Source of the DNA: Mustelus asterias
Lineage: Eukaryota
Length of the DNA: 64,000 bases
Assembly (NCBI RefSeq): GCF_964213995.1
Contig: NW_027590122.1
Coordinates: 1,798,001 to 1,862,000 of the forward strand
Direction: 5' to 3'
How positions within the stretch are numbered: the first letter of the stretch is position 1; every line of letters starts with the position of its first letter. Positions 14,871 through 58,680 of this stretch are shown piece after piece. The position numbers and the translations under genes were made by a program. The notes below the pieces were generated by a model. It worked only from the letters and a program-made list of their open reading frames with translations. It did no database searches and was not told where the DNA came from.

Positions 14871-15218
14871 AGGTTTCAAACAGAAATGCTGACTAAATAT
14901 CTCTGAACTTCCCAACACCCGGTCACTCTGTGATCCTAGAGAAATTTGAAACCAGGTATTCGCAACAAGACTCAAAGAGCATTAGCCCATTGGAGGCCAA
15001 GTTGTGAGACTGGTCAGTCCAGCAGAAAGAAACCCTCTGACCCTCCGCATTGACTAACTGTGAGAATGAACAAAATGCAGTCCTGGATGTAATTGAGAGC
15101 AGAAATAATAACAGCAGAATCCAACCCCTGTGAACTTGTTGGTGCCTCAGCAGCTGTGATGAAATTCTGAACCCTTTTTATACACTGAGCAGGTGGACAG
15201 TTTCTCCCCAGTGTAACC

Positions 15219-15797
15219 TCACTGATGTCTCAGCAGGTGGGACAACTGAGTGAATTCCTTCCCACACTGAGAGCAGGTAAACGGCCTCTCCCCGCTGTGA
15301 ACTCGCTGGTGTGTCCGCAGGTCGGATGACCGAGTGAATCCCTTCCCACACTGAGAGCAGGTGAACGGTCTCTCCCCAGTGTGAACTCGCTGGTGTGTCC
15401 GCAGGTCGGATGACCGAGTGAATCTCTTCCCACACTGAGAGCAGGTGAACGGCCTCTCCCCAGTGTGAATTCGCTGGTGTGTCCATAGATTGGATAACTG
15501 GTTGAATCCCTTCCCACACTGAGGGCAGATGAACGGCCTCTCCCCAGTGTGAATTCGCTGGTGTCTCTGCAAAGTGGATAACACAGTGAATCCCTTTCCA
15601 CACTGAGAGCAGGTGAACGGTCTCTCTCCAGTGTGAACTCGCTTGTGTGACTGCAGGTGGGGGAACCGAATGAATCCCTCCCCACACTGGGAGCAGATGA
15701 ATAGCCTCTCCCCAGTGTGGTTGCGCCGATGAGCATCCAGCAGAGAGGGGTATCTGTATCTCTTTCCACAGTCTGCACATTTCCATGGTTTCTCCAT
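15219..15797 (-). CDS. C2H2 zinc-finger protein, ~7 fingers, premature TGA inside the last intact finger
   Basis: ORF 15219..15833; likely start MEKPWKC in CACCATGG context; TGERP linkers; a degenerate finger follows the stop. Confidence 0.8.
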
Positions 15798-19444: not shown

Positions 19445-20482
19445 ATGGAAGGAAAAAGCACCATTCACACCAGGGAGAAACCATGGAAATGTAGGGACTG
19501 TGGGAAGGGATTCAGACGCCCGTGCGAGCTGGAAATCCATCGACGCAGACACACCGGGGAGAGGCCGTTTACTTGCTCTATGTGTGGGAAGGGATTCACT
19601 CAGTTAATTTGCCTTCAGAGACACCAGAGACTCCACACTGAGGAGAGGCCATTCATCTGCCCCATGTGTGGGAAAGGATTCACTCTCTCATCCCACCTGC
19701 TGAAACATCAGCAAGTTCACACTGACAAGAGAAAGTTTAAATGCTCCGACTGTGAGAAGAGCTTTAAAAACCCACATGGACTGAGGGAGCACCAGCGCAT
19801 TCACACCGGGGACACACCGTTCAACTGCTCACAGTGTGGGAAGAGGTTCAGGACATCACCCCACCTTCAGATACACCAACGAGTTCATACTGGTGAGAGA
19901 CCTTTTAAATGTCCAGAGTGTGGGAAGTGCTTCAAAGGTTCTGGAGATCTTCAATACCATCAACGTGTTCACACTGATGAGAGACCGTTCAGATGCTCTC
20001 ACTGCGGAACTGGGTTCAGACGATTATTTGAACTCACTGTACATCAGCGCACTCACACTGGGGAGAGGCCGTTCATCTGCCCCCAGTGTGGGAAGGGATT
20101 CACTCAGTCCTCCAACCTGCTGACACACCAGCAGATTCACACTGAGAAGAGACCATTCATCTGCTCTGAATGTGGAAAGGGATTTGCGCGACCATCCAAT
20201 CTGCTGACACACCAGCGAGTTCACACTGGGGAGAGACCATTCACCTGCTCCGAGTGTGGGAAGGGATTTATTCGATCATCCAATCTGCTGATACACCAGC
20301 GAGTTCACACCAATGAGAGACCCTTCTCCTGCTCTGAGTGTGGGAAGGGATTTATTAATTCATCTACCCTGCAGGCACACCAGCGAATTCACACCGGGGA
20401 GAAGCCCTTCACATGCTCCACATGTGGAAAGTGTTTTAATCGATCATACAACCTGCTGGTGCACCAGCGAGTTCATAAATGA
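19445..20482 (+). CDS. C2H2 zinc-finger protein, 12 fingers
   Basis: ORF 19364..20482; likely start MEGKST at 19445; 12 CX2CX12HX3H units with TGERP-type linkers. Confidence 0.9.
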
Positions 20483-21970: not shown

Positions 21971-23792
21971 AATCTGTTCTGCACCGTGTTCCATGGCCTT
22001 CCTGGTGTCAGATTCCCAAAACCTGACTCAATTCTCAAACAGCAGCTGAACCAATTGTTGAGAAGTTTATTTTATAAAATGTAGGATAATATTTTCAAAC
22101 ACACGCTCCAGCTTGAATGATTTCTGTATCTAAACCCTTTATAATTTATGACAATTCATTGAGGTACGGGGTCTAATATTTTTTTGTGTTTGGGAGAGAG
22201 TTTAGTCTGAGTTCGAGGCTCAAACAGGCTCTTTACTGCAGACAGCTCACCATGGCAACACTGATAAGACATTTCATTGCACAGAATCGACTCAGAAACC
22301 CTTGCCTGAGGCCTGGCTGTACTCAGTAGCCATTGATAATTTAACATGTTTTTGTGACTGTCTTGAATCAGTGACTTTAATGCTGGTGTTACTATTTTAA
22401 AATAAACTCATTCAAAATAATTTATAAAAGTCTGCATTAAAGTATCAGATGAAGGAGTTCACAGGAGCCTGTTAACCGCTGGGACAACAATACAACAGGC
22501 ATTGAGTGAGGGACAGACGCAACCTGGAAACTGGAGGAGTGAATATTGGAAATACTGACCCTTCAGCACCCAGTGAATTCACACATGGCTCTGAGCTCCT
22601 AAACAGGGAACAGAAGCTCCTTTACAACTGGGCTTAGAGTCAGGAAGAACAGCGGTGAATGCTGGAAACGAGCTGTCAAATCAGAGATTGGTGTAAAACT
22701 GGGATCTGTTCCTGAGTGAGAGCGAAACAGTGGGGTTATAATTCCAGTCCGAAAAATGACTGGTATTTATTGTGTAATGATTTAATGTGTTTGTGATAGT
22801 CTTGAATCAGTGACTTTAAAGCTGGTGTTACTAATTTAGAATAAAGCCATTTAAAATAAATCTGTGAAAAATCAGTTGGAGGGGTTAAGAGGAGCCTGTT
22901 AACCCTGGGACAATTATACAACAGACATTGGATCTTCAGATAGAGAAGGAGCTGCAGTGTGTTTCCAGGAATTCCCTGTTTAATTGAGAATAAGCAGCTT
23001 CTGGTCCCGGGTATAAACTGGCGACAGCTTCTCGGCTGTTTCCGGTGACAGACCCGGCACAGCCAATGAGGGAGCTCTTGCTCAGAGCTGCCTCTGACAC
23101 TCTCTCTCTGGTTGGAGGACCAGCCGCCCTTTCTCATTCTTCTTCAGAAGAGTCACGTTGGACATGAAACATTAGCTCTGTTTCTCTCTCAACAGATGCT
23201 GCCAGACCGAGAGCTTTTCCAGCGTTTTCTGTTTTTATTTCACCATCTCCACCATTTCTTTCCTCCACTCCCAGTTTTCTCCCTCCCTCTCCTCTGTGTT
23301 CAGATCTCCAGCTCCTGCCTGCAGCCTAACAGTAAAATCAATGATTTTCTCTCCTGGTCACTGGGACTCTGAAGCCCCGCCCCCTCGCTGTTGTGTCAAG
23401 GTGACCACACGTGTGTTCTGCTCCCTGTTGAAACAAAATGGCAGCCATTAATCTGATCCTGGTCTGGAGCAGAATTCCTGGAGCTGCAAATGCAGGGCCT
23501 GCAGGGTTTTATTCCAGATTTGCTACCAATCCCGGGTGTTAATGACCCCTCCATCAACCTGCCAGCTCCACCGCTCCCTCATATCTCGCTGCCTCTGCCA
23601 CCACTTACCGGCAGCAAATGGGAGAAAAATCTCTTCTTCACCATCACTCACCTTGGGCATGCTCCAAACAATCCAACGCTGTTATTGTGCATTCGTCTCC
23701 CATGATGTAGAGAGGGGACTTTCCCCATCACAGAGAATGCTGGGTATACTCACCACCATTTAAGTCCCAATTAGTTTTAATTATTTATTTGG

Positions 23793-24772
23793 TGTGACGG
23801 CACGAAGACTGGGGTTAGAGTGACAATCAATCAAATTAGGAACTAAATACAGAAACCCAAGTTTACAGTCCCTCTCCAATCTGCCAGACAGTAGGAGATG
23901 GGAATTAGTGAAGAACGAGAGTGTCCACATAGCAGTGCGTTATAATCCAGGTCAGAAACTCCAAGGTGTTTTATGAAGTCATCCCAGATCATAAGCTTTG
24001 CATTTTGACTTTGGCACGGGTAAGCATGAGATGTTTCACTCCAGGTATGATTCAAGTGAGCCACTGGGGAGCTTTTATCAAACAAAGTTTATTTAAAAAT
24101 ACAATTAACACATAGAAAGAAACTTAGCAAGAGCTTTTACCAATTACAAACAAGAAAAAAACCATGATATTGTGTAAACATTAACAGCTCAATGTCCTGT
24201 TCCAACACAACATTCTTATCAACATACACACATGGTTTTGGTTTAGCACAGAAAATGCGGATGCTCACGTGATTTTGCAGCTCTGCAACACCTGCTGTGA
24301 ATTAGTGCTTTGGATGGAGAATTGAAATGCTGACTTCCCCATCCTGTAGCTCCCAGCACCCTCGAGGTAGAGATAGAGCCACTGCTTGCCTCTAGCTAGC
24401 AAACCACTAATTGCAAAATTTTCACTCCAGAAAAGCAAGAAAGACTGCTTCCATCGAGCCAGCAGAATTTCTAATACCAGGGAGAGACACAGAAATACTG
24501 CTTTTCAGTCTGGGATCTAACAGCTTCTACCTAAAAGTGAATCCTTGGATTCCTCTGTGAAGGAACCACCTGACCTTGACCTGTCAATCAATCTTCCCAC
24601 AACAATTCAAAAGGGACATAAACTCGTAAAACTCCAGGACATTCCATTCAGCCCAAATTACAGATAAACAAAAAGGCCCATTGTGCTTTCATCAGACATC
24701 ACGGCAACAATACAAAAACCCCCCAGAGAATCAGGATTAAAATACCTTCCTTAAATGCACAGTAGTATCACA
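23793..24772 (-). mobile_element. Probable solo LTR
   Basis: ~980 bp bounded by TGTGA...TCACA with an AATAAA on the minus strand (~24087). No clean TSD seen. Confidence 0.45.
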
Positions 24773-24917
24773 AGTGATCACTGCAGAATTGACTTCACTG
24801 TAACGTGAGCTCACTGGTGTCTCAGGAAGGTGAGATGCCTGAATCAATCCTGTTTGTAATTTCAGGATTGCATTCTCATGGATATTCCAGATCATGTATT
24901 TTATTTATGGTGGCATT

Positions 24918-25230
24918 TTGATTTGATTTATTATTGTTACATGTATTAGTATACAGTGAAAAGTATTGTTTCTTGCACGCTATACAAAGCATACCGTTCA
25001 TAGAGAAGGAAATGAGAGATTGCAGAATGTAGTGTTACAGTCATAGCTAGGGTGTGGAGAAAAATCAACTTAGTGTGAGATAGGTCCATTCAAAAGTCTG
25101 ATGGCAGCATGGAAAATGCTATTCTTATATCAGTTGGTACGTGACCTCAGACTTTTGTATCCTTTTTTCCAATGGATGAAAGGGAAGAGAATGTCCAGGA
25201 TGTGTGGGGTCCTTAATTATGCTGCTTGCT
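24918..25230 (-). mobile_element. Rex1/Babar-type LINE 3' end
   Basis: TTTGATTTGATTTATT tail; rc similarity to 18200-18499. Confidence 0.7.
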
Positions 25231-25254
25231 GCAGCTCCTTCCTTTTCAGAAGTT

Positions 25255-26380
25255 TATAAGGAACAGGAGCAGGAGTCGACATTTCACCCACCGGGGTTGC
25301 TCTGCCATTCAATGAGATTGTGGCTGATCAGATTATGGCTGATTGCAGCCTGAACTCCACATTCCTGCCTCGCTCCTGTTCCCTCAACTCCCTTTTGATC
25401 AACGCTCTGTGTAACTCAGCCTTGAATATATTCAATGATCCAGCTCCAGTGCTCTCCAAGGAGAGAGAATTCCAAAGTGAATGAGAAGAAATTCCTCCTC
25501 ACCTCCCTTATTATTAAACTCAGCCTCCAGTTTGAGATTTCCATGAGGGGAAACATCCTCTCAGCATCCAACCTGTCGAGCCCCCCCATGAATTTTAGGT
25601 TTCAATAAGATCATCTCTCAATCTTCGAAACTCTGTGTGCGGACCCAACCTTTCCTCATAAAGTAACCCCTTCATCCCAGGAATCAGCCCAGTGAATCTT
25701 CTCTGAACTGCTTCCAACACAATTGTATTTTGTGTCTTTCACTGAAAACAGGACAAATATTTTGTTCAGAGTCTGGGCCATTTCCTTCATTCCCATGATT
25801 GTTCAGTCTTACCTGCTGAGGGACCAATCCTCACTTCAGCTGCCCTTTCCTATTTCATAAACTTGGAGAAATTTTGTGAGAGATGTTTCCTGTGAGTTTC
25901 CCCTCAAACTCCATTTTCCAAGACATTCAATGATCTTAGAGAGGTAGGGAAGTTGGAGATGGGGCGCTAGTTTGCACAAACGGTGGGATCAAGAGCTGGT
26001 TCATTGAAGAGGAGGCTGATGTTGGCAGTTTTGCAGAGTGACAGGACCCGAGGCAAGGGAACAATTAAAACAATCAGCTCACACGGGGAAGGTGATGGTC
26101 AGCAACTTAGTGAGAATAGAGTGAAGGGAGCAGAGGGTGAGTCTCACGGAGAAGGGGAGCTTTGGAGGGGATGAGAGGAGATAGGAGAAAAACTAAAGAA
26201 AGAGGCAAGTTTAAGGCTCAAGGAACGAGGAGCTTTTAGAGACAGTTTGGCTCCATGGGCCAGTGGAAGGGAGTGAATCAGCAGAAGCAGCTGATCAGAT
26301 TGTCTCAATCTTAGTGACAAAGAAGCTCCATGAGCTCCTCACACTTGTTGGAGGAGATGGGGGAGGGAGAGAATTTCAAA
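25255..26380 (-). mobile_element. Old CR1/L2-group LINE fragments
   Basis: rc CR1-type 3' tail (GGAGCAGGAGT...GAGATTGTGGCTGATC), then degraded RT-like sequence. Confidence 0.5.
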
Positions 26381-26569
26381 AGGAACTAACTTATGTTGGT
26401 GACAGTAAAAGGACTTGTCACACTGTGTTTAACACAAAGCTGATTTATTTATCCTTTACCCAGAATATTAACCTCCACCTGAAGTGGAGTTTATTAACAT
26501 CATCAGAAACAGACCCAAGAACATAGTTCAGTCCTGGATGTTATTAACAGAAGAATCAAATCACAGTAA

Positions 26570-26811
26570 TTACATGTGAACTCTCAGGTATGTCAACAGG
26601 TTGGGCAAACAGATAAATCCCTTCCTACACGCTGAGCAGGTGAACAGCCTCTCCCCAGCATCAGTGTGCTGGTTTACAGTGAGTTGAGCTGAACCCAGTC
26701 CCAGAGTGAGAGGACCAGAACAGTCTCTTGTCAGTGTGAACTCGTTGTTGGGATATTAGTTCCTCCAATCGTCTACAGCATTTCCTGGAATTGAGCATTC
26801 AAACAGGTTTC
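26570..26811 (-). pseudogene. Decayed 3' fingers of the 28350-28910 ZNF gene
   Basis: rc shows ~3 degenerate fingers (QQRVHTDKRLF..., GERLFTCSACRKGFICLPNLLTYLRVHM*) followed by the family 3' UTR. Confidence 0.75.
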
Positions 26812-28357
26812 AGATCAGTGATCGGTTCCAGCTTAATTTCAGACTCAGTGAAACAAAAATAAGACGTTTTAGTTGTTCAATTAAACAACAGCCTGTTCCA
26901 TTTGATTACTACCAAAAGCCTGTCTATATTCGTAGAAAGGAGGTTCGATCTATATTTTCATTTGGAATTCGTGGGGATTTTTCTTCTGATCGCAATGCAT
27001 TGCTGGGCGTGATCAATGATCCAATCCAAAGTACGCATGAAATGGGGATGCCTGTTTCTCAAAATCCTCCACCTATTATAGTTAATAGGGGGAGAACATA
27101 CATCGACAACCCTGCAAAGCCCAGTGTATACAATGTTGTTTCAAGACACATATGTAATCTGATTGTAAATTCAAAGGAGACAAAATGGATGCCAGTCATT
27201 TGGAAAACATACTTCCTCGGTGTGATTCGTACATGAGTGCAATAATGAACCCTGGCCAACGATTTCAAAAAGTCCACACCACAAATTACGAGTATCAGAT
27301 ATCCAGTAAAGCAACCCCCAAAGAGGTCTTCAAAGTTTGCCATCTGTGCAAGCACTTCAGCAAAGCGCATATTCATACTTAGAAAGGACATCACCAATAA
27401 CTCTATCAGATGCATCACCCACCACCAGAGTTTCAACCGGCCAGGAAAAGTACAAGCTGTTGGCTCAAACATCATCCATCGAGAGCATGCCGAAAGAAAA
27501 AGGAGTTTATCTCCAGAAGTATTGCCTGCACTCACTCCCAGGACAGGTTGCAAGTACAGAATAATAATGACTCCCGTACAACATCGGATGAGTGCTGGAC
27601 ACTTCTCAGCTTGGGAGGCAGGAAACGATGAAATCCTATACTACATGCAGAAGACCAGTGGTGGTGATATCTAAGGATAAGGCAGTTGCTCCAACACCTC
27701 ATCAAGAAGATCCAATCCAAATTAGCAGACATAAGATGCATGAAACCTGGCTGTCTATTTCTCGAAATCCTCCACCTCATGCACCATCCACCACCACAGT
27801 TTCAACCGGCCAGGGAAAGCGCAAGCGTTTGGATGAAACACCATCCATCGAGAGCATTCCGAAAAGAAAAATGAGTTTATCTCCAAAAATATTGCCATCA
27901 CTCACTCCCAGGACAGGTTGCAAGTACAGAATAACAAAGATTCCCGGACAACATCGGATGAGTGCTGGTCACTTCTCAGCTTGGGAGGCAGGAAACGATG
28001 AAATCCTATACTACATGCAGAAGACCAGTGGTGGTGATGACCAATCTGAGGATAAGGCAGTTGCTCCAACACCTCATCAAGAAGTTCCAATCCAAAGTAC
28101 ACATGAAATGGGGATGCCTGTTTCTGGAAATCCTCCACCTGATGCACCACCCACCACCAGAGTTTCAACCGGCCAGGAAAAGCGCAAGCTGTTGGCTCAA
28201 ACACCATCCATCGAGAGCATTCCAAAAAGGTTTGGTTCTGCCTTTCAATTATCCTAATGAACAATGTTTGCATCTTCATAGCTGCTGACAGATAAAGTTG
28301 ATAAAATACACATTCAGTTGCCTACAACAGTTAATAAACATTTGCAATACTAAAACA
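26812..28357 (+). pseudogene. Processed retrocopy of an unidentified gene encoding a ~120-aa internal repeat
   Basis: TSD AAACAGGTTTC at 26801-26811 and 28358-28368; stop at 28255-28257; AATAAA at 28333 then an A-rich tail; ~365-nt repeats starting ~27409, 27778 and 28141. Confidence 0.75.
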
Positions 28358-28910
28358 AAACAGGTTTCTCATCAGTGTGACTGCGCTGGTGTTTCCGCAG
28401 GTTGGCTAACCGAGTGAATCCTTTCTCACACTCTGGGCAGGTGAATGGCTTCTCCCCAGTGTGAACTCGCTCATGTGCCAGCAGGTTCGATGAGTGAGTG
28501 AATCCCATCCCGCAGTCAGAGCAGAGGAACGGCCTCTCTCCGGTATGAACTCTCCGGTGGTTCAGCAGGTTGTATGAATGAGTGAATCGCTTTCCACAGT
28601 CAGAGCAAATGAATGGCCTCTCCCCGGTGTGAATTCGCTGATGAGTCACCAGACTGGATAACTGAGTGAATCCCTTCCCACACACGGGACAGGTGAACTG
28701 TCGCTCCCCAGTGTGATTTCGCCCATGAGCTTTCAGTTCAAATGAGTAACTGAATCCCTTCCCACAGTCCCCACACTTATAGGGTCTTTCTCCAGAGTGA
28801 ACGTGCTTGTGTTTCAACAGGCCAGATGATCGGCTGTAGCCTTGTCCACACTCAGAGCACGTGTACGGTTTCTCCCCACTCTTAACAGTGCTTTTACCTT
28901 CCATGTTCAA
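28350..28910 (-). CDS. C2H2 zinc-finger protein, 6 fingers, truncated by the retrocopy
   Basis: ORF 186 aa MNMEGKST..., 6 intact fingers; the stop codon is supplied by the insert. Confidence 0.8.
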
Positions 28911-29759
28911 ATTTTGATGATACTGAAGTTCTGATGAATTGGGTGACTCTCAGATCCTGATGTGATGTTCAAATTTCCCAACTGCAAATCCTCCACTTCC
29001 AATACCCTGTGAAATTGATTTAAAACAGAAAAAAAGGGAGTGAGAGAGAACCCACTAAATACAAAGGCAAAGTGTGAAATTGAGCTGAATGAATCAGGTA
29101 ATTTGTGGAGCTGGCACTAGGAAAAGATGACCATGAAAAGTGCTGGATTGTCATGAAAACCCAACTAGTGTTCTTCAGGCGAGGAAACCTGCCCATACAG
29201 TCTGGGTCTACACCAGGTCTGAACCAACACAAGACTCTGGGATCAATGAGGGGAGCAAGGAAGAGAAAGATAGTGAGGTGGGAATGGGAAGTATTGAAGG
29301 AGAGGATTTTATATATCTCCAACCCGACCCGAGCTTTGATGGAACATCCAAACCTTTAGTTCAGCCACCTAAAAGGTCCAGAGCAGCGTGTGTGTGTGAA
29401 CATGAACACCTCCAATTCCCCTCCAAGTAACACACCATCCTCTCATGTATGACATCCAGTGCTCGTTGAGCAGAAATGTCCTCCAATTCAATACTGGGAA
29501 GAGGAAAGCCACTGTCTTCAGTGCTTGCAACAAAATCCACTCCCCACCTACTCTCTCTGCTGTAACTCTTTGAGGCTGAACCAGACAGTTCATAATCTGG
29601 TTGTCAAATTTTATCCCAAGCTGAGGCTCTGATTATATATCACTAAGATTAATATATTAACACCTACAACAAAGATGGAGCTATTTTGCAATTCAGCAGA
29701 AACAGACCCAAATGAATATGGTTCAGTCTGAATATGATCACAGCAAAATCCAATCACTG

Positions 29760-30110
29760 CAGTTAGTTGGAATTTGTTGGTGTTTTCACAGTCTGGATGA
29801 GGTAATGTATCCCTTCCCACAATAGGAACAGGTGAACCACCTCTCCCCCGTGTGACTGCATTGATGAGTTTCCAACTTGGATGAATCTTTGAGTCCCTTC
29901 CCCCAGTCCCCACATTCCCATGCCATCTCCCTGTTGGGACGATAATTATGTTCTGGAAGGCCAGATGATTGGTTGAAATCTTAACCACACACGGTGTTCT
30001 TCCCTTCTATATTAAAAATACAATGGTATTCAGACTACAGTAAATTGGCCAACTCCATGATATTCTCCTGTGATATTTGGTTTCAAATCCTCCCTTCTAA
30101 AATCCTGTGC
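29760..30110 (-). pseudogene. Short degenerate ZNF exon
   Basis: rc ECGDWGKGLKDSSKLETHQCSHTGERWFTCSYCGKG..., with family flanks. Confidence 0.65.
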
Positions 30111-31872: not shown

Positions 31873-32547
31873 TCATTTGTGAACTCCCTGATGTCTCAGC
31901 AGGCTGGTTGACTGGGTGAATCCCTTCCCACAGTCAGAACAGATGAACGGCTTTTCCCCAGTGTGAACTCGCTGGTGTTTCAGCAGGTGGGATGATCGAG
32001 TGAATCCTGTCCCACACACAGAACAGGTGAATGGCCTCTCTCCGGTGTGAACTCGACGGTGTCTCAACAGATGGGATGACCGAGCGAATCCCTGCCCACA
32101 GGTCGAACAGGTGAATGGCTTCTCCCCAGTGTGAACTCGCTGGTGTGTCAGAAGGCTGGATAACTGACTAAATCGCTTCCCACATGCAGAGCAGATGAAG
32201 GGTTTCTCCCCAGTGTGAACTCGCCGGTGTCTCAGGAGGCTTGATGAATTAATGAATCCCTTCCCACAGTCGGAGCAGCTGAATGGACTCTCCCCGTTAT
32301 GAACTCGCTGGTGTGCCAGCAGGGTGGATGAATTTCTGCATCCTTTCCCACACATGGAGCAGGTGAAGGGACTCTCCCCAGAATGAACTCGCTGGTGTGT
32401 CAGCAAGTTTGATGAATTAGCAAATCCCTTCCCACACTGGAAGCAAGTGAACGGTCTCTCCCTGGTGTGACTGCGCCTGTGAATTTCCAGATGAGATGGG
32501 GAAGTGAATCTCTTCTCACAATCTGCACATTTCCACGGTTTCCCCAT
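31873..32547 (-). CDS. C2H2 zinc-finger protein, 8 fingers
   Basis: ORF 224 aa MGKPWKC...HQGVHK; ACCATGG start; family acceptor at ~32700. Confidence 0.9.
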
Positions 32548-38173: not shown

Positions 38174-39406
38174 TCAGACCTGGATATGATTAACAGCATC
38201 GATAAGTGTAGAATCCAAACCTTGCAGTCCCTTGTGAACTCGCCGGTGTGTTAGCAGGTGGGATGACTGAACAAATCCCTTTCCACAGACATTACAGGTG
38301 AACGGCCTCTCCCCAGTGTGAACTCGCTGGTGTGTTAGCAGGTGGGATGACTGAACAAATCCCTTTCCACAGACATTACAGGTGAACGGCCTCTCCCCAG
38401 TGTGAACTCGCTGGTGTTTCAGAAGATAAGAGAAATGAGAAAATCCCTTCCCACAGACCGAGCAGGTAAATGGCCTCTCCCCACTGTGAACTCTCTGATG
38501 TGTCAGCAGGTTGGATGACTGACTGAATCCCTTCCCACACATGGAGCAGGTGAACGGCCTCTCCCCAGTGTGAACTCGCTGGTGATTCAATAGGTTGGAT
38601 GAACGAGTGAATCCCTTCCCACATACAGAGCAAGTGAATGGCCTCTCCTCACTGTGAACCTGCTGCTGTGTCAGAAGGTTGTATGAACGGGTGAATCCCT
38701 TCCCACATTCAGAGCAGGTGAACGGTCGATCCCCTGTGTGGAGTTGCTGGTGTATCAGAAGGTTGGATGAATTAATGAATCCCTTCCCACAGTCTGAGCA
38801 GGTGAAGGGCCTCTCCCCAGTGTGAATTCTCTGGTGGTTCAATAGGGCAGATGGATGGCTGAATCCCTTCCCACACACACAGCAGGTGAATGGCCTCTCC
38901 CCAGTGTGAGTATATTGGTGCGTCAGCAGATCTTTTTTATTTTTAAAGCTCTTCTCACAGTGGGAACAATTAAAAAGTTTGTTATCAGAGTGAACAAGTT
39001 GATGTGTCTGCAAGTGGGATGACTGAATGAATCCTTTCCCACACACACAGCAGGTGAACGGTCTCTCCCCAGTGTGAATACGTTGGTGCGTCAGCAGATC
39101 TTTTTTGCATTTAAAACTCTTCCCACAGTCAGAACATGGAGACAGTCTCTCATCAGTGTGAACAAGTTGGTGTGTCACAATGTGGGATGAGCGAGTGAAT
39201 CCCTTCGCACACACAGGGCAGGTGAACGGCCTCTCCCCAGTGTGAACCCGTTGGTGAGTCAGAAGGTTGTATGAATGGGTGAATCCCTTCCCACAGACAG
39301 AGCAGGTGAACGGTCTCTCCCCAGTGTGACTGCGCCGATGAACTTCCAGTTGTGATGGGAAACTGAATCCCTTCCCACAATCCACACATTTCCACGGTTT
39401 CTCCAT
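38174..39406 (-). CDS. C2H2 zinc-finger protein, 14 fingers (one degenerate)
   Basis: ORF 410 aa MEKPWKC...; finger 9 has H->Q; the last two fingers are near-identical. Confidence 0.92.
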
Positions 39407-42728: not shown

Positions 42729-43907
42729 ATGGAGAAACCATGGAAATGTGGGGACTGTGGGAAGGGATACAGAGCCCCATCTAAGCTGGAAGCTCATCGA
42801 CGCAGCCACACTGGGGAGAGACCATTCACCTGCTCTCAATGTGGGAAGGGATTCACTCGATTATCCCTCCTGCAGAGACACCAGCGAGTTCACACTGGAG
42901 AGAGGCCATTTTCCTGCTCTCAATGTGAGAAGGGATTCAGTCAGTTATCCGACCTGCAGAGACACCAGCGAGTTCACACTGGGGAGAGGCCGTTCACCTG
43001 CTCTCAGTGTGGGAAGGGATTCACTCAATTATCCACCCTGCGGACACATGAACGAGTTCACACTGGGGAGAGGCCATTCACCTGCTCTCAGTGTGGGAAA
43101 GGATTCATTCTGTTATCCAGCCTGCGGATACACCAGCGAGTTCACACTGGGGAGAAACCATTCACCTGCTCTCAGTGTGGGAAGGGATTCATTCAGTTAT
43201 CCAGCTTGCAGAAACACCAGCAAGTTCACACAGGAGAGAGGCCGTTCACCTGCTCTCAGTGTGGGAAGGGATTCATTCTGTTATCCCTCCTGCAGAGACA
43301 CCAACGAGTTCACACTGGGGAGAGGCCATTCAACTGTTCTCAGTGTGGGAAGGGATTCACGAACTCATCCATCCTGCGGACACACGAACGAGTTCACACT
43401 GGGGAGAGACCGTTCACCTGCTCTCAGTGTGGGAAGAGATTCACTCAGTCAGCCGACCTGCAGAGACACCAGCTACGTCACACAAGGGAGAGGCCGTTCA
43501 CCTGCTCTCAGTGTGGGAAGGGATTCATTCTGTTATCCAGCCTGCGAATACACCAGCGAGTTCACACTGGGGAGAAACCATTCATCTGCTCTCAGTGTGG
43601 GAAGGGATTCACTAACTCATCTGATCTGCGGACACACCAGCGAGTTCACACAGGGGAGAGGCCGTTCACCTGCTCTCAGTGTGGGAAGGGATTCACTCAG
43701 TCATCCCACCTGCAGAGACACCAGCGAGTTCACACTGGGGAGAGACCATTCAACTGTTCTCAGTGTGGGAAGGGATTCACTCAGTCATCCAACTTGCAGA
43801 CACACCAGCGAGTTCACACTGGGGAGAGGCCATTCACCTGCTCTCAGTGTGGGAAGGGATTCAGAGTTTCATCCCACCTGCTGAGACACCAGCGAGTTCA
43901 CGAGTGA
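42729..43907 (+). CDS. C2H2 zinc-finger protein, 14 highly homogenised fingers
   Basis: ORF 42693..43907; likely start MEKPWKC (CACCATGG); 84-bp repeat array. Confidence 0.92.
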
Positions 43908-54880: not shown

Positions 54881-55224
54881 TCATCAGTTCCTGAGAGCTT
54901 TTGAAGCCGCACCCACATTCGGAGAATTTAAAGGATCTCTGCAGAGTGTGAGTGATGTTCTGTCTGTGCAGTCTGGATAACCGAGTAAATCCTTTCACAC
55001 TCACTGAGCAGGTAAATGGTCTCTCCCCGGTGTGAACTCACTGGTGTTCCTGCAGGTTGGATGACCATTTAAATCTCTTTGTGCAGTGAGAGTGTGCTGG
55101 TGGGACACCAATTAGCCAGAACTTTTGAAGCCGCGCCCACACACACAGAGCAGCTGAACTGTCTCTCCCCTGTGTAAATGCACTGGTTGATCATCAGTTC
55201 CTGAGAGGTTTTGAGTCCGGCCTC

Positions 55225-56682
55225 TCAGTCAGAGCATTTAAAGGGTCTCTCCTTGGTGTGAGTAACATTGTGTCTCAGCAAGCTGGATGACTGAGTGAAT
55301 CCCTTCCCACACACAGAGCAGGGGAATGGTTTCTCCCCAGTGTGAACTCGCTGGTGTATCCACAGTGTGGATGACCTTTTAAATCTCTTTGTGCAGTGAG
55401 AACAGCTGAACGGTCTCTCCTCAGTGTGAACTCGCTGGTGAATCAACAGTTCTTGAGAGCTTTCAAAACCAGTCCCACAGTCAGTGCATTGAAAGGGTCT
55501 CTCCTGGGTGTGAGTGCTTTTGTGCTTCAGCAGGCTGGACAACTGAGTGAATCCTTTCCCACACACACAGCAGGGGAATGGTTTCTCCCCAGTGTGAACT
55601 CGCTGGTGTTTCCGCAGATTGGATGAACTTTTAAATCTCTTTGTGCAGTGAGAGCAGCTGAAGGGTCTCTCCTCAGTGTGAATGCGCTGGTGAATCATCA
55701 GATCCGCAGCACTTTTGAAGCCACGCCCACAGTCAGAGCATTTAAAAGGTCTCTCATTGCTGTGAGTGACTTTGTGTGTTGTCAGACCAGATGACTGAGT
55801 GAATCCCTTCCCACACACAGAGCAAGTGAATGGCCTCTTCCCAGTGTGAACTCGCTGGTGTACCCGCAGATTGGATGAGGTTTTGAACCTCTTTGTGCAG
55901 TGAGAGCAGCTGAACGGTCTCTCCTCGGTGTGAATGCGCTGGTGGATATTCAGATCCGCAGCACTTTTGAAGCCACTCCCACAGTCAGAGCATTTAAAGG
56001 GTCTCTCATTGCTGTGAGTGACTTTGTGATTCTGTAAGTGGGATGACTGAGTGAATCCCTTCCCACACACAGAGCAGGTGAATGGCCTCTCCCCAGTATG
56101 AACTCGCTGGTGTGTCTGCAGGTGGGATGACCGATTGAATCCCTTCCCACACACAGAGCAGGTGAACAGTCCCTCTGCAGTGTGAAAGCGTTTGTGGGAC
56201 ATCAGTTCACCAGAGCTTTTGAAGCCTCTCCCACAGTCAGAGCATTTAAAGGGTCTCTCCTGGGTGTGGGTGACTTTGTGTTTCAGCAGGCTGGATAATT
56301 GAGTGAATCCCTTCCCACACACACAGCAGGTGAACAGTCTCTCCCCGGTGTGAACTCGCTGGTGTTGCCGCAGGTTGGATGATGTTCTGAATGTCTTTGT
56401 GCAGTGAGAGCAGCTGAACGGTCTCTCCTCAGTGTGAATGCGCTCGTGCTCTCTCAGATCCGCAGCACGTTTGAAGCCGCTTCCACAGTCAGAGCATTTA
56501 AAGGGTCTCTCATTGCTGTGAGTGACTTTGTGTCTGAGCAGGTGGGATAACTGAATGTATCCCTTCCCACACACAGAGCAGGTGAATGGCCTCTCCCCGG
56601 TGTGACTGCGTCGATGGATTTCCAGGTCACAGGGGGCTCTGTATCTCTTCCCACAGTCCCCACATTTCCACCGTTTCTCCAT
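55225..56682 (-). CDS. C2H2 zinc-finger protein, 17 fingers, stop within the 18th
   Basis: ORF 55225..56718; likely start MEKRWKC; decayed fingers continue to ~54880; acceptor at ~57041, donor at ~57724. Confidence 0.9.
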   Translation of the reverse strand: MEKRWKCGDCGKRYRAPCDLEIHRRSHTGERPFTCSVCGKGYIQLSHLLRHKVTHSNERPFKCSDCGSGFKRAADLREHERIHTEERPFSCSHCTKTFRTSSNLRQHQRVHTGERLFTCCVCGKGFTQLSSLLKHKVTHTQERPFKCSDCGRGFKSSGELMSHKRFHTAEGLFTCSVCGKGFNRSSHLQTHQRVHTGERPFTCSVCGKGFTQSSHLQNHKVTHSNERPFKCSDCGSGFKSAADLNIHQRIHTEERPFSCSHCTKRFKTSSNLRVHQRVHTGKRPFTCSVCGKGFTQSSGLTTHKVTHSNERPFKCSDCGRGFKSAADLMIHQRIHTEERPFSCSHCTKRFKSSSNLRKHQRVHTGEKPFPCCVCGKGFTQLSSLLKHKSTHTQERPFQCTDCGTGFESSQELLIHQRVHTEERPFSCSHCTKRFKRSSTLWIHQRVHTGEKPFPCSVCGKGFTQSSSLLRHNVTHTKERPFKCSD

Positions 56683-58289: not shown

Positions 58290-58680
58290 GAGCTGCTGCC
58301 TGTTGCCTGGCCTGCCTGTCGCCTGACCTGCCTGCCTGTCGCCTGGCCTGCCTGCCTGTTGCCTGGCCTGCCGCCTGGCCTGCCTGCCTGTCGCCTGGCC
58401 TGCCTGCCGCCTGGCCTGCTTACCTGCCTGCCTGCCTGCCGTCTGGCCTGCTTACCTGCCTGCCTGCCGTCTGGCCTGCTTACCTGCCTGCCTGCCGTCT
58501 GGCCTGCTTACCTGCCTGCCTGCCGTCTGACCTGCTTACCTGCCTGCCTGCCGTCTGGCCTGCTTACCTGCCTGCCGTCTGGCCTGCTTACCTACCTGCC
58601 TGCCTGCCGTCTGGACTGCCTGCCTGCCTGCCGTCTGGGCTGTCTGCCGTCTGGACTGCCTGCTTGCCTGCCATCCGGCC
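58290..58680 (+). repeat. (CCTG)n-based compound repeat in the Tx1 5' UTR
   Basis: Reiterated GCCTGCTTACCTGCCTGCCGTCTG units. Confidence 0.9.

Follow-up and report, generated by a model that had tools for sequence, protein, structure and literature searches.

The window analysed here is a 64,000-nt stretch of the Mustelus asterias genome (contig NW_027590122.1, positions 1,798,001 to 1,862,000 of the forward strand), in which an insert of 1546 bp (26812-28357) lies antisense to a C2H2 zinc-finger (ZNF) gene. The insert is a processed pseudogene (i.e. a broken, intron-less copy of an mRNA) of a host gene rather than of a virus or transposon; a LINE-1-like reverse transcriptase is the likely agent of its insertion. 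Overall we consider it probable that this is a disabled copy of a member of a shark-and-ray gene family derived from the nucleoporin NUP153, made by LINE-1-like machinery and subsequently multiplied as a functionless passenger of the ZNF gene. An initial annotation of the window did not recognise the parent, yet it is not an orphan; profile comparisons, an exon that we term D, a terminal motif and the intron phases indicate that the family is likely to have come from NUP153.

The sequence AAACAGGTTTC is found at both 26801-26811 and 28358-28368, forming an 11-bp direct repeat that flanks the insert. Its 10-nt core is present as a single copy in the insert-free ZNF paralog L145, where it reads directly on into a finger, and the repeat is therefore a true target-site duplication. 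The last open reading frame of the insert (27592-28257) ends in a TAA stop at 28255-28257, and 75 nt separate this from an AATAAA signal at 28333-28338. The A-rich remnant is found at 28352-28357, with ~8 A in sister copies. The poly(A) tail is short and non-genomic; the intron-bearing genes described below have non-A sequence past the cleavage site. Direct reading thus confirms each hallmark that had been annotated, i.e. the length of the insert, its 11-bp duplication, the stop, a 3′ untranslated region (UTR) of ~75 nt, the AATAAA and the A-rich tail, and the single core at the insert-free site of L145 answers the check on the duplication. The three peptides quoted in that annotation are all present, spread over two frames, and the fragmentation reported there is real; the coding path undergoes five frame changes and conversion of ATG to ATA, so that the reading frame is disabled. 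The proposed unit of ~120 aa repeated about 2.3 times is likewise confirmed as an internal repeat of 463 nt at 87% identity with a period of 363-375 nt. The ascription to L1-type retroposition fares less uniformly. The hallmarks are consistent with it, and the bottom strand at the insertion site reads TTT/GA, but two other sites are a poor fit to the LINE-1 consensus.

Those other sites are at C18:86.89 Mb and C1:80.85 Mb, where the same transcript was inserted independently. The two retrocopies there have different flanks, their own 10-bp target-site duplications, 1.3 repeat modules and an intact ATG. Their 5′ starts are nearly the same as that of the insert and their poly(A) site is the same. 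Pairwise, the three independent insertions differ at 20-27 of ~560 sites in exons A-D.

Members of the family that retain introns lie at C5:108.21-108.23 Mb, at C5:108.29-108.31 Mb (a tandem twin with 99% identity) and at C1:34.72 Mb, with others on C16. The exon matches in the C5 and C1 genes are flanked by AG and GT, and their ends coincide with the junctions of the insert; the A|B, E|F, F|G, G|B and B|E junctions all match such borders. Retroposition of a polyadenylated mRNA, as first annotated, is borne out by these matching splice junctions within the same genome.

The insert, on the forward strand throughout, begins with a first exon or 5′ leader (26812-26847), for which the only genomic match is a weak one (26 nt, 81%) upstream of the C5 genes; the three independent insertions start within ~12 nt of this point. 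Exon A (26848-27018) has its start codon position at 26859-26861, which reads ATA in 16 of 16 ZNF-linked copies and ATG in the C18 and C1 retrocopies and in the C5 genes. There follow a first copy of exon B (27019-27074, phase 1 to 0) and segment C (27075-27287), which has no intron-bearing match in the assembly and is absent from both the C5a gene and its 99% twin; it probably comprises two exons related to exon D. Exon D itself (27288-27408) is the counterpart of a 117-nt phase 0-0 exon of NUP153. The first module (27409-27777) consists of exons E, F and G (with a 5-nt deletion) and a divergent 69-nt B, and the second (27778-28140) of exons E, F, G and B, the borders of both being placed within 1 nt. 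After the last exon E (28141-28229) comes the start of a retained intron (28230-28352) that directly adjoins exon E in the genes on C5 and C1, and which supplies eight codons, the stop, the 3′ UTR, the AATAAA and the cleavage site. The poly(A) remnant (28352-28357) is absent from the genes at this point and is longer in sister copies.

The exon order is thus leader-A-B-C-D-E-F-G-B-E-F-G-B-E, continuing past the donor of the last E into the intron, where the transcript was polyadenylated after ~120 nt; the transcript consequently lacks the RanBP2-type zinc-finger exon that other members possess. In two C5 genes, splicing of A-B-E-F-G to one additional exon yields open frames of 316 aa, and all five introns have AG/GT borders. 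The additional exon encodes a single RanBP2-type zinc finger (PF00641, E = 2e-4, below cut-off) and is present in all four C5 paralogs. The zinc-finger isoform has also been retroposed, with the spliced G junction, at C1:105.58 Mb and on C1071.

Some additional observations were made on these genes. The retrocopies of the zinc-finger isoform, L083 (C1:105,584,1xx) and L084 (C1071:71,350), are 5′-truncated, with 95-96% identity to the C5 gene. Immediately before L083 lies an inverted piece of 158 bp, and the two share several kb downstream, so that they may be one insertion duplicated. Four loci at C5:107.92-108.31 Mb make up the family cluster in this genome, and additional pieces are found on C1 and C16. 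The C16 member (L036, C16:75,965,104-75,968,286) has GTG in exon A in place of the ATG of the others, and an exon matching the end of P0129. Downstream of the two intact C5 genes, exons at C5:108,188,450 and 108,276,432 correspond to the C-terminal end of P0122 and P0135, and these genes may have splice forms longer than the 316-aa frame. Exon D of the C5a gene (L023, C5:108,220,757-108,220,849) is truncated by a repeat, and the 99% twin contains nothing that matches it. The region C5:108.23-108.35 Mb (L024, L050-L055) contains near-identical tandem repeats of 3-7 kb between and past the gene copies; a frame within it (L055:6636-7364) resembles a Harbinger-type transposase.

We conclude that the family very probably derives from NUP153, its members being paralogous offshoots and not NUP153 itself. 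NUP153 has an N-terminal domain (Pfam PF08604), zinc fingers (PF00641) and an FG-rich tail. In this genome it is a conserved single gene at C2:132.90-132.96 Mb. The connection was prompted by the best matches of the family finger in the PDB, where the fingers of Nup153 ranked first (E 2e-4), followed by those of TAB3 (0.017) and RanBP2 (0.47). Similarity to NUP153 is found in exon D, the finger and the tail, each weak alone, and is colinear. A NUP153 profile compared with 16 family proteins gave 8 at E<0.001 (calculated for 20,000 sequences), the best at 2.5e-9, with colinear matches to the finger and the C-terminus; the NUP153 profiles were built from 45 of the long proteins for this test, and from 60 of 82 for the sub-profiles discussed below.

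Exon D aligns end to end with the phase 0-0 exon of NUP153, with both borders and the phases coinciding, and the global alignment score was reached by none of 5000 shuffles and none of 20,675 decoy windows. Pairwise BLASTP with white-shark NUP153 gave 33% identity over 113 aa with E = 8e-6 for that single comparison. In the opposite direction, a profile of seven D-like exons of the family, built without NUP153, found 54 of 102 NUP153 proteins at E<=10, and all 54 matches fell on that exon. In the C5c paralog (C5:108,161,962-108,163,155) two D-type exons of 111 nt, both phase 0-0, lie in tandem, and the NUP153-like exon has therefore itself been duplicated within the family. The lengths of B and C together equal those of two NUP153 exons (269 nt). 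We reject this as coincidence: 15 of 300 codon shuffles score as well, and C resembles the D-type repeats.

At the other end of the gene, the paralog at C5:107.92-107.97 Mb terminates in RKIKTAVHRRK-stop. The final exon (C5:107,965,941-107,966,021) is of phase 2-stop and the one before it of phase 1-2, which is also the arrangement in the NUP153 gene of this genome. The RKIKTAV motif or a close variant is also terminal in P0126, P0130, P0132, P0134 and P0140; it is the longest members of the family that finish in this way. It is absent from the insert, and was not found for the two nearest C5 genes. Thus the family resembles NUP153 in having, in the same order, a single N-terminal exon, a single RanBP2-type finger and the final pair of exons with their terminal basic motif, and in the intron phases of exon D and of that final pair. 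It differs in lacking most of the N-terminal domain, three of the four fingers and most of the FG sequence, and in having a new conserved core (GHF-AW-E...YYM); it changes fast, whereas NUP153 is conserved. The insert retains only the exon-D remnant.

A number of observations weigh against this derivation, or against the wider account. There was no match to Pfam PF08604 in the frames of the insert or in 15 related proteins. The NUP153 sub-profiles score the insert at E = 0.86-1.7 among 14,228 decoy frames, which is not significant, and the profile-profile probability of the insert with NUP153 was 53%. The score of the insert against one primate NUP153 was matched by 20 of 300 shuffles, and against three cartilaginous-fish proteins by 0 of 300. 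Exon A shows no likeness to NUP153, the intron positions of exons E and F differ from those of NUP153, the C-terminal match lies in sequence of low complexity, and NUP153 was chosen for comparison after the fact. On orthology, as distinct from derivation, NUP153 has four RanBP2-type fingers, and there is one in the C5 genes and in 8 of the 15 relatives and none in the insert. Further difficulties, among them the failure to find the direct parent and the limited variability of the insert, are discussed below.

HMMER searches of 1.84 billion representative sequences found 15 family proteins at E<=0.001. Fourteen of them are named; eight shark species account for 13 and an electric ray for the other, in agreement with the suggestion that a lineage-specific host gene was the source, which the intron-bearing relatives in the genome also uphold. 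No chimaera or bony vertebrate was among the matches, which bounds the reach of the query and not the proven range of the family. In nearly every case the named proteins are labelled uncharacterized, or else they are automatically named, with one locus termed Nup153-like. The E-F-G core is common to the family proteins, and the RanBP2-type finger, below the Pfam cut-off, is present in 8 of 15. Word-indexed protein searches gave nothing for the last frame in the window (lengths 121-387) or for the finger exon (longer proteins), and the insert peptide had no match in the PDB at E<=10. Atlas clusters gave leads only, with a best score of 0.78 for the insert peptide and 0.86 with RanBP2-finger clusters for the finger exon. 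We found no paper on this family or on NUP153 duplicates in the literature searched, a scope that most subscription journals and supplements lie outside, and this fast-changing NUP153-like family of sharks and rays is apparently undescribed.

The repeat of ~120 aa corresponds to a spliced four-exon module (B-E-F-G), and we suggest that it was duplicated in the DNA of the parental gene, as is seen in a relative. Compared with the C5 genes, where each exon occurs once, the join from G to B is non-colinear. In a C5 gene, the intron that follows G contains a 96% identical copy of 1.1 kb of the A-B intron, and the module starts and ends in phase 1. The first and last B, and the first and last E, differ at positions that are shared between independent insertions, and one B carries a 12-nt in-frame insertion. 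A basking-shark protein has the order A-(B)-E-F-G-B-E-F-G-B, as in the insert. The intron copy, the phases, the position-specific differences and the basking-shark order together favour duplication of the module in genomic DNA. In a tree of exon F units, from which four near-duplicates and the truncated C89b and C549 units were omitted, the units group by module and not by copy, with 1 of 18 inner branches well supported. Elsewhere, the 767-nt contig P0123 encodes an 83-aa fragment that matches the retrocopy at 87% identity and runs F-G-B-C, a module variant of which this genome showed no example.

How far might other origins account for these data? The family might be an independent lineage-specific gene that shares with NUP153 no more than a generic RanBP2-type finger and low-complexity S/T/P/F/G sequence; in its favour are the missing PF08604 match, the weak profile scores of the insert and a conserved core (exons E, F and G) that has no clear counterpart and different intron positions in NUP153. 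Against it are the terminal RKIKTAV motif, with its stop where NUP153 has one, the agreement in phase of the last two exons, the match of exon D at both borders and the colinear order of exon D, finger and tail, and we regard it as improbable. That a DNA virus or large transposon supplied the captured transcript, or that the insert is a retroelement 3′ end, could be argued from its 44 matches in the genome and the missing direct parent. Yet the copy number is explained by shared flanks, the relatives are intron-bearing genes in a tandem cluster and 14 of 14 named protein relatives are host proteins of elasmobranchs. The insert has no terminal inverted repeats, Pfam detects no viral or transposon domain in its frames (where only chance-level matches were found) or in the 15 relatives, and the terminal repeats, transposase, reverse transcriptase, viral genes and dispersed independent copies that mark transposable elements or endogenous viruses were not seen. 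This source, which had been entertained in the initial annotation, is largely refuted already and we give it almost no weight. Alternatively the repeat might have been made by back-splicing from a single-module gene, through reverse transcription round a circular RNA or through exon repetition. According to PMC4897178, a junction from a downstream donor to an upstream acceptor is the mark of pseudogenes derived from circular RNA, and the G-to-B junction of the insert is similarly non-colinear relative to single-module genes. By contrast with the pseudogenes covered there, the insert includes 5′ exons as well as a poly(A) signal, a tail and diverged modules, and a genomic duplication accounts for the junction. 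It does not have circle-only exons, few terminal adenosines or the repeats, identical at birth, expected of such a molecule; its modules differ by up to 13-20% while the independent insertions differ at the 20-27 sites noted above, the position-specific differences recur across those insertions, the F units group by module (with low support) and the junction of the genomic duplication survives after G. Back-splicing is accordingly very improbable. Derivation from NUP153 with duplication of the module in genomic DNA therefore remains our preferred explanation.

The insert lies antisense within the ZNF exon, as first annotated, but not in the middle of an intact frame. It interrupts the linker after finger 6, and its tail supplies a TAG two codons later, leaving a frame of 184 aa (28350-28904, reverse strand) in which six fingers stay in frame; the zinc fingers past the insert (26570-26800, reverse strand) are degenerate. 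Whether this was the position of the natural stop codon of the ZNF gene is uncertain, since the empty paralogs continue in frame. The head of the ZNF gene is kept in 14 of 16 copies, and 11 of the 14 have no internal stop. Among those 14 (the two copies without the head being omitted) there are 16 synonymous and 12 non-synonymous distinct changes, giving a ratio of non-synonymous to synonymous polymorphism (pN/pS) of 0.22 (p = 8e-5), and the host gene is under purifying selection. There is no AATAAA or ATTAAA on the ZNF strand inside the insert. The first two AATAAA signals after the ZNF stop lie past it (26444-26495, reverse strand), so that the ZNF mRNA is predicted from the sequence to carry the whole insert antisense in its 3′ UTR.

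A search of the genome with the insert gave 44 matches. Of the 40 left-flank matches that were scored, 16 reach 93% identity or more, and the insert is present in every one of these; none of the 40 is an insert-free close paralog. Because the insert follows every close flank match, the 16 copies represent one insertion that was later duplicated with its host. The insertion site and the lost start codon are common to all 16. The duplicated unit of ~6.8 kb, comprising the ZNF exon and the insert (22981-29805), was delimited in the two copies where both ends are visible (C172 and C145). The number of modules is 3.3, with a secondary insertion of 1.2 kb, in four copies and 2.3 in ten, while the remaining two are truncated 3′. 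Both junctions are also bridged by contigs of run X1, which carries the code of a second organism and a second study; the insertion is therefore not peculiar to the present assembly. Some of the nearly identical copies could nevertheless be redundancy of the assembly. One further fragment, L035 (C14:40,829,786-40,829,872), is a lone 87-bp piece of exon E joined to a repeat junction, which is the same as that in the element interrupting the C1:80.85 Mb retrocopy; it looks like a small secondary transfer.

In ten copies the first 600 bp of the insert vary at 26 of 578 sites, compared with 36 of 565 in the left flank and 49 of 552 in upstream DNA. The variability is thus not above that of the left flank and is below that of upstream DNA, so plain neutral decay is not favoured, which sits awkwardly with a functionless passenger. 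Could the ZNF-linked copies have been kept and amplified because ZNF transcripts bearing the insert in antisense yield small interfering RNAs or Piwi-interacting RNAs (piRNAs) that silence the NUP153-like family in the germline? The selection on the host gene, the lack of a poly(A) signal on the ZNF strand within the insert, the 16 copies, a variability of the insert no greater than that of its flanks and the missing parent are all compatible with such a role, and there is a precedent in Nmy, a retroduplicate that silences Dox through small RNAs (PMC12941216). Yet ZNF genes duplicate anyway in this genome (531 first-look candidates for a 122-bp flank), in exons E and F the copies share no more than 78-83% identity with the surviving genes, and reversed pseudogenes in primate piRNA clusters mostly lack constraint (PMC6461890). 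A role as an antisense silencer is possible but unsupported, and on balance unlikely. Less probable again, and in our opinion decidedly speculative, is that the NUP153-derived family took part in a germline conflict over nuclear transport, in which a truncated member with added modules was countered by an antisense retrocopy in the 3′ UTR of a ZNF gene under selection, amplified 16-fold as a small-RNA silencer, the targeted parent then being lost or lying on an unassembled sex chromosome. If true, this would be a vertebrate counterpart of Sd-RanGAP. We continue to prefer the functionless passenger. The presence of 16 antisense copies within a ZNF gene under selection makes the silencing idea testable.

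The direct parent, i.e. an intron-bearing gene with exons at least 95% identical, was not found in searches of the assembly, and was not among the loose ends shown for four contig runs, where the intron-flanked ends among those listed were those of exon G of the C5 genes. Intron-containing relatives were thus found but not the parent itself, and this too counts against our account. Between the nearest genes and the retrocopies, exons E and F differ at 41-54 of 244 sites, yet the retained intron at only 1-5 of 122 (Fisher p 8e-5 to 6e-8). Positive selection is not supported as the cause of the exon divergence from the C5 and C1 genes, the ratio of non-synonymous to synonymous divergence (Ka/Ks) being 0.42-0.65 and four-fold sites differing at 4-8 of 23-25. 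Two other causes can be rejected: just 9-14 of the 41-54 differences are at CpG, contrary to CpG decay, and the changes split 7:5 (E) and 13:12 (F) against an outgroup, contrary to acceleration on one side. Our guess is that conversion of introns among paralogs lies behind the closeness of the retained intron. The retrocopy is in effect a fossil transcript, recording an isoform and a parent gene that have no counterpart in the assembly, and it implies expression in the germline.

We propose the following history. The transcript joined the exons seen in the relatives at AG/GT borders in the order leader-A-B-C-D-(E-F-G-B)x2-E, the phase 1-1 unit B-E-F-G being duplicated in the genomic DNA of a relative and presumably in that of the parent. 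Read-through of the donor of the last E led to polyadenylation ~120 nt into the intron and to loss of the zinc-finger exon. Expression in the germline and target-primed reverse transcription would then have produced the copy, which lies antisense in the linker after finger 6 of the C2H2 gene. Duplication with the host produced the 16 copies that share site and lost start codon, unequal exchange of modules would have altered their number to 3.3 or 2.3, and ZNF mRNAs would now include the insert antisense in the 3′ UTR. Judged from sequence and intron phase, the family would retain from NUP153 a single N-terminal exon, a single RanBP2-type finger and the last two exons.

Elsewhere in the window there are seven more C2H2 arrays with a period of 84 nt, on both strands (9791-10827, 15187-15719, 20041-20475, 31878-32470, 38233-39329, 42807-43901 and 55147-56605), and the window is therefore a ZNF cluster. 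A degenerate GC-rich array resembling a microsatellite, with nested periods of 16-80 nt, occupies 58296-58670.

The retrocopy itself is ordinary; what it leads to are the tandem, intron-bearing offshoots of NUP153 in sharks and a ray that are listed as uncharacterized. A fast-changing derived family within slow-evolving genomes is a good place to seek germline or anti-viral conflict at the nuclear pore.

Retroposition of the LINE-1 type makes processed pseudogenes, and the insert resembles these in its exact loss of introns, its poly(A) signal and tail, the target-site duplication, the lost start and the frameshifts; a sister retrocopy also has a short inverted piece. It differs in that its template was an intronically polyadenylated isoform, and in that one insertion was multiplied 16-fold with a host gene, with a changing number of modules and no direct parent found. 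Precedents for conflict are provided by Sd-RanGAP and Dox/Nmy of Drosophila (PMC12941216), and Drosophila also has fast-evolving nucleoporins (PMC3530687). The likeness lies in a truncated duplicate of a nuclear-transport gene, and in retroduplicates able to give antisense RNA against their parent (PMC12941216). Unlike these, the shark family is known here from sequence alone, and the Ka/Ks of its paralogs is 0.42-0.65. The nearest known case is the NPAP1, NPAP1L and UPF0607 family, which PMC3942032 describes as intron-less retrogenes of placental mammals derived from the nucleoporin POM121. Both families are lineage-restricted, truncated and fast-changing derivatives of a nucleoporin that have passed through rounds of retroposition and duplication (PMC3942032). 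By contrast with the NPAP1 genes as described there, members of the shark family keep their introns, come from NUP153 and form a tandem cluster in elasmobranchs, and it is their retrocopies that are broken.

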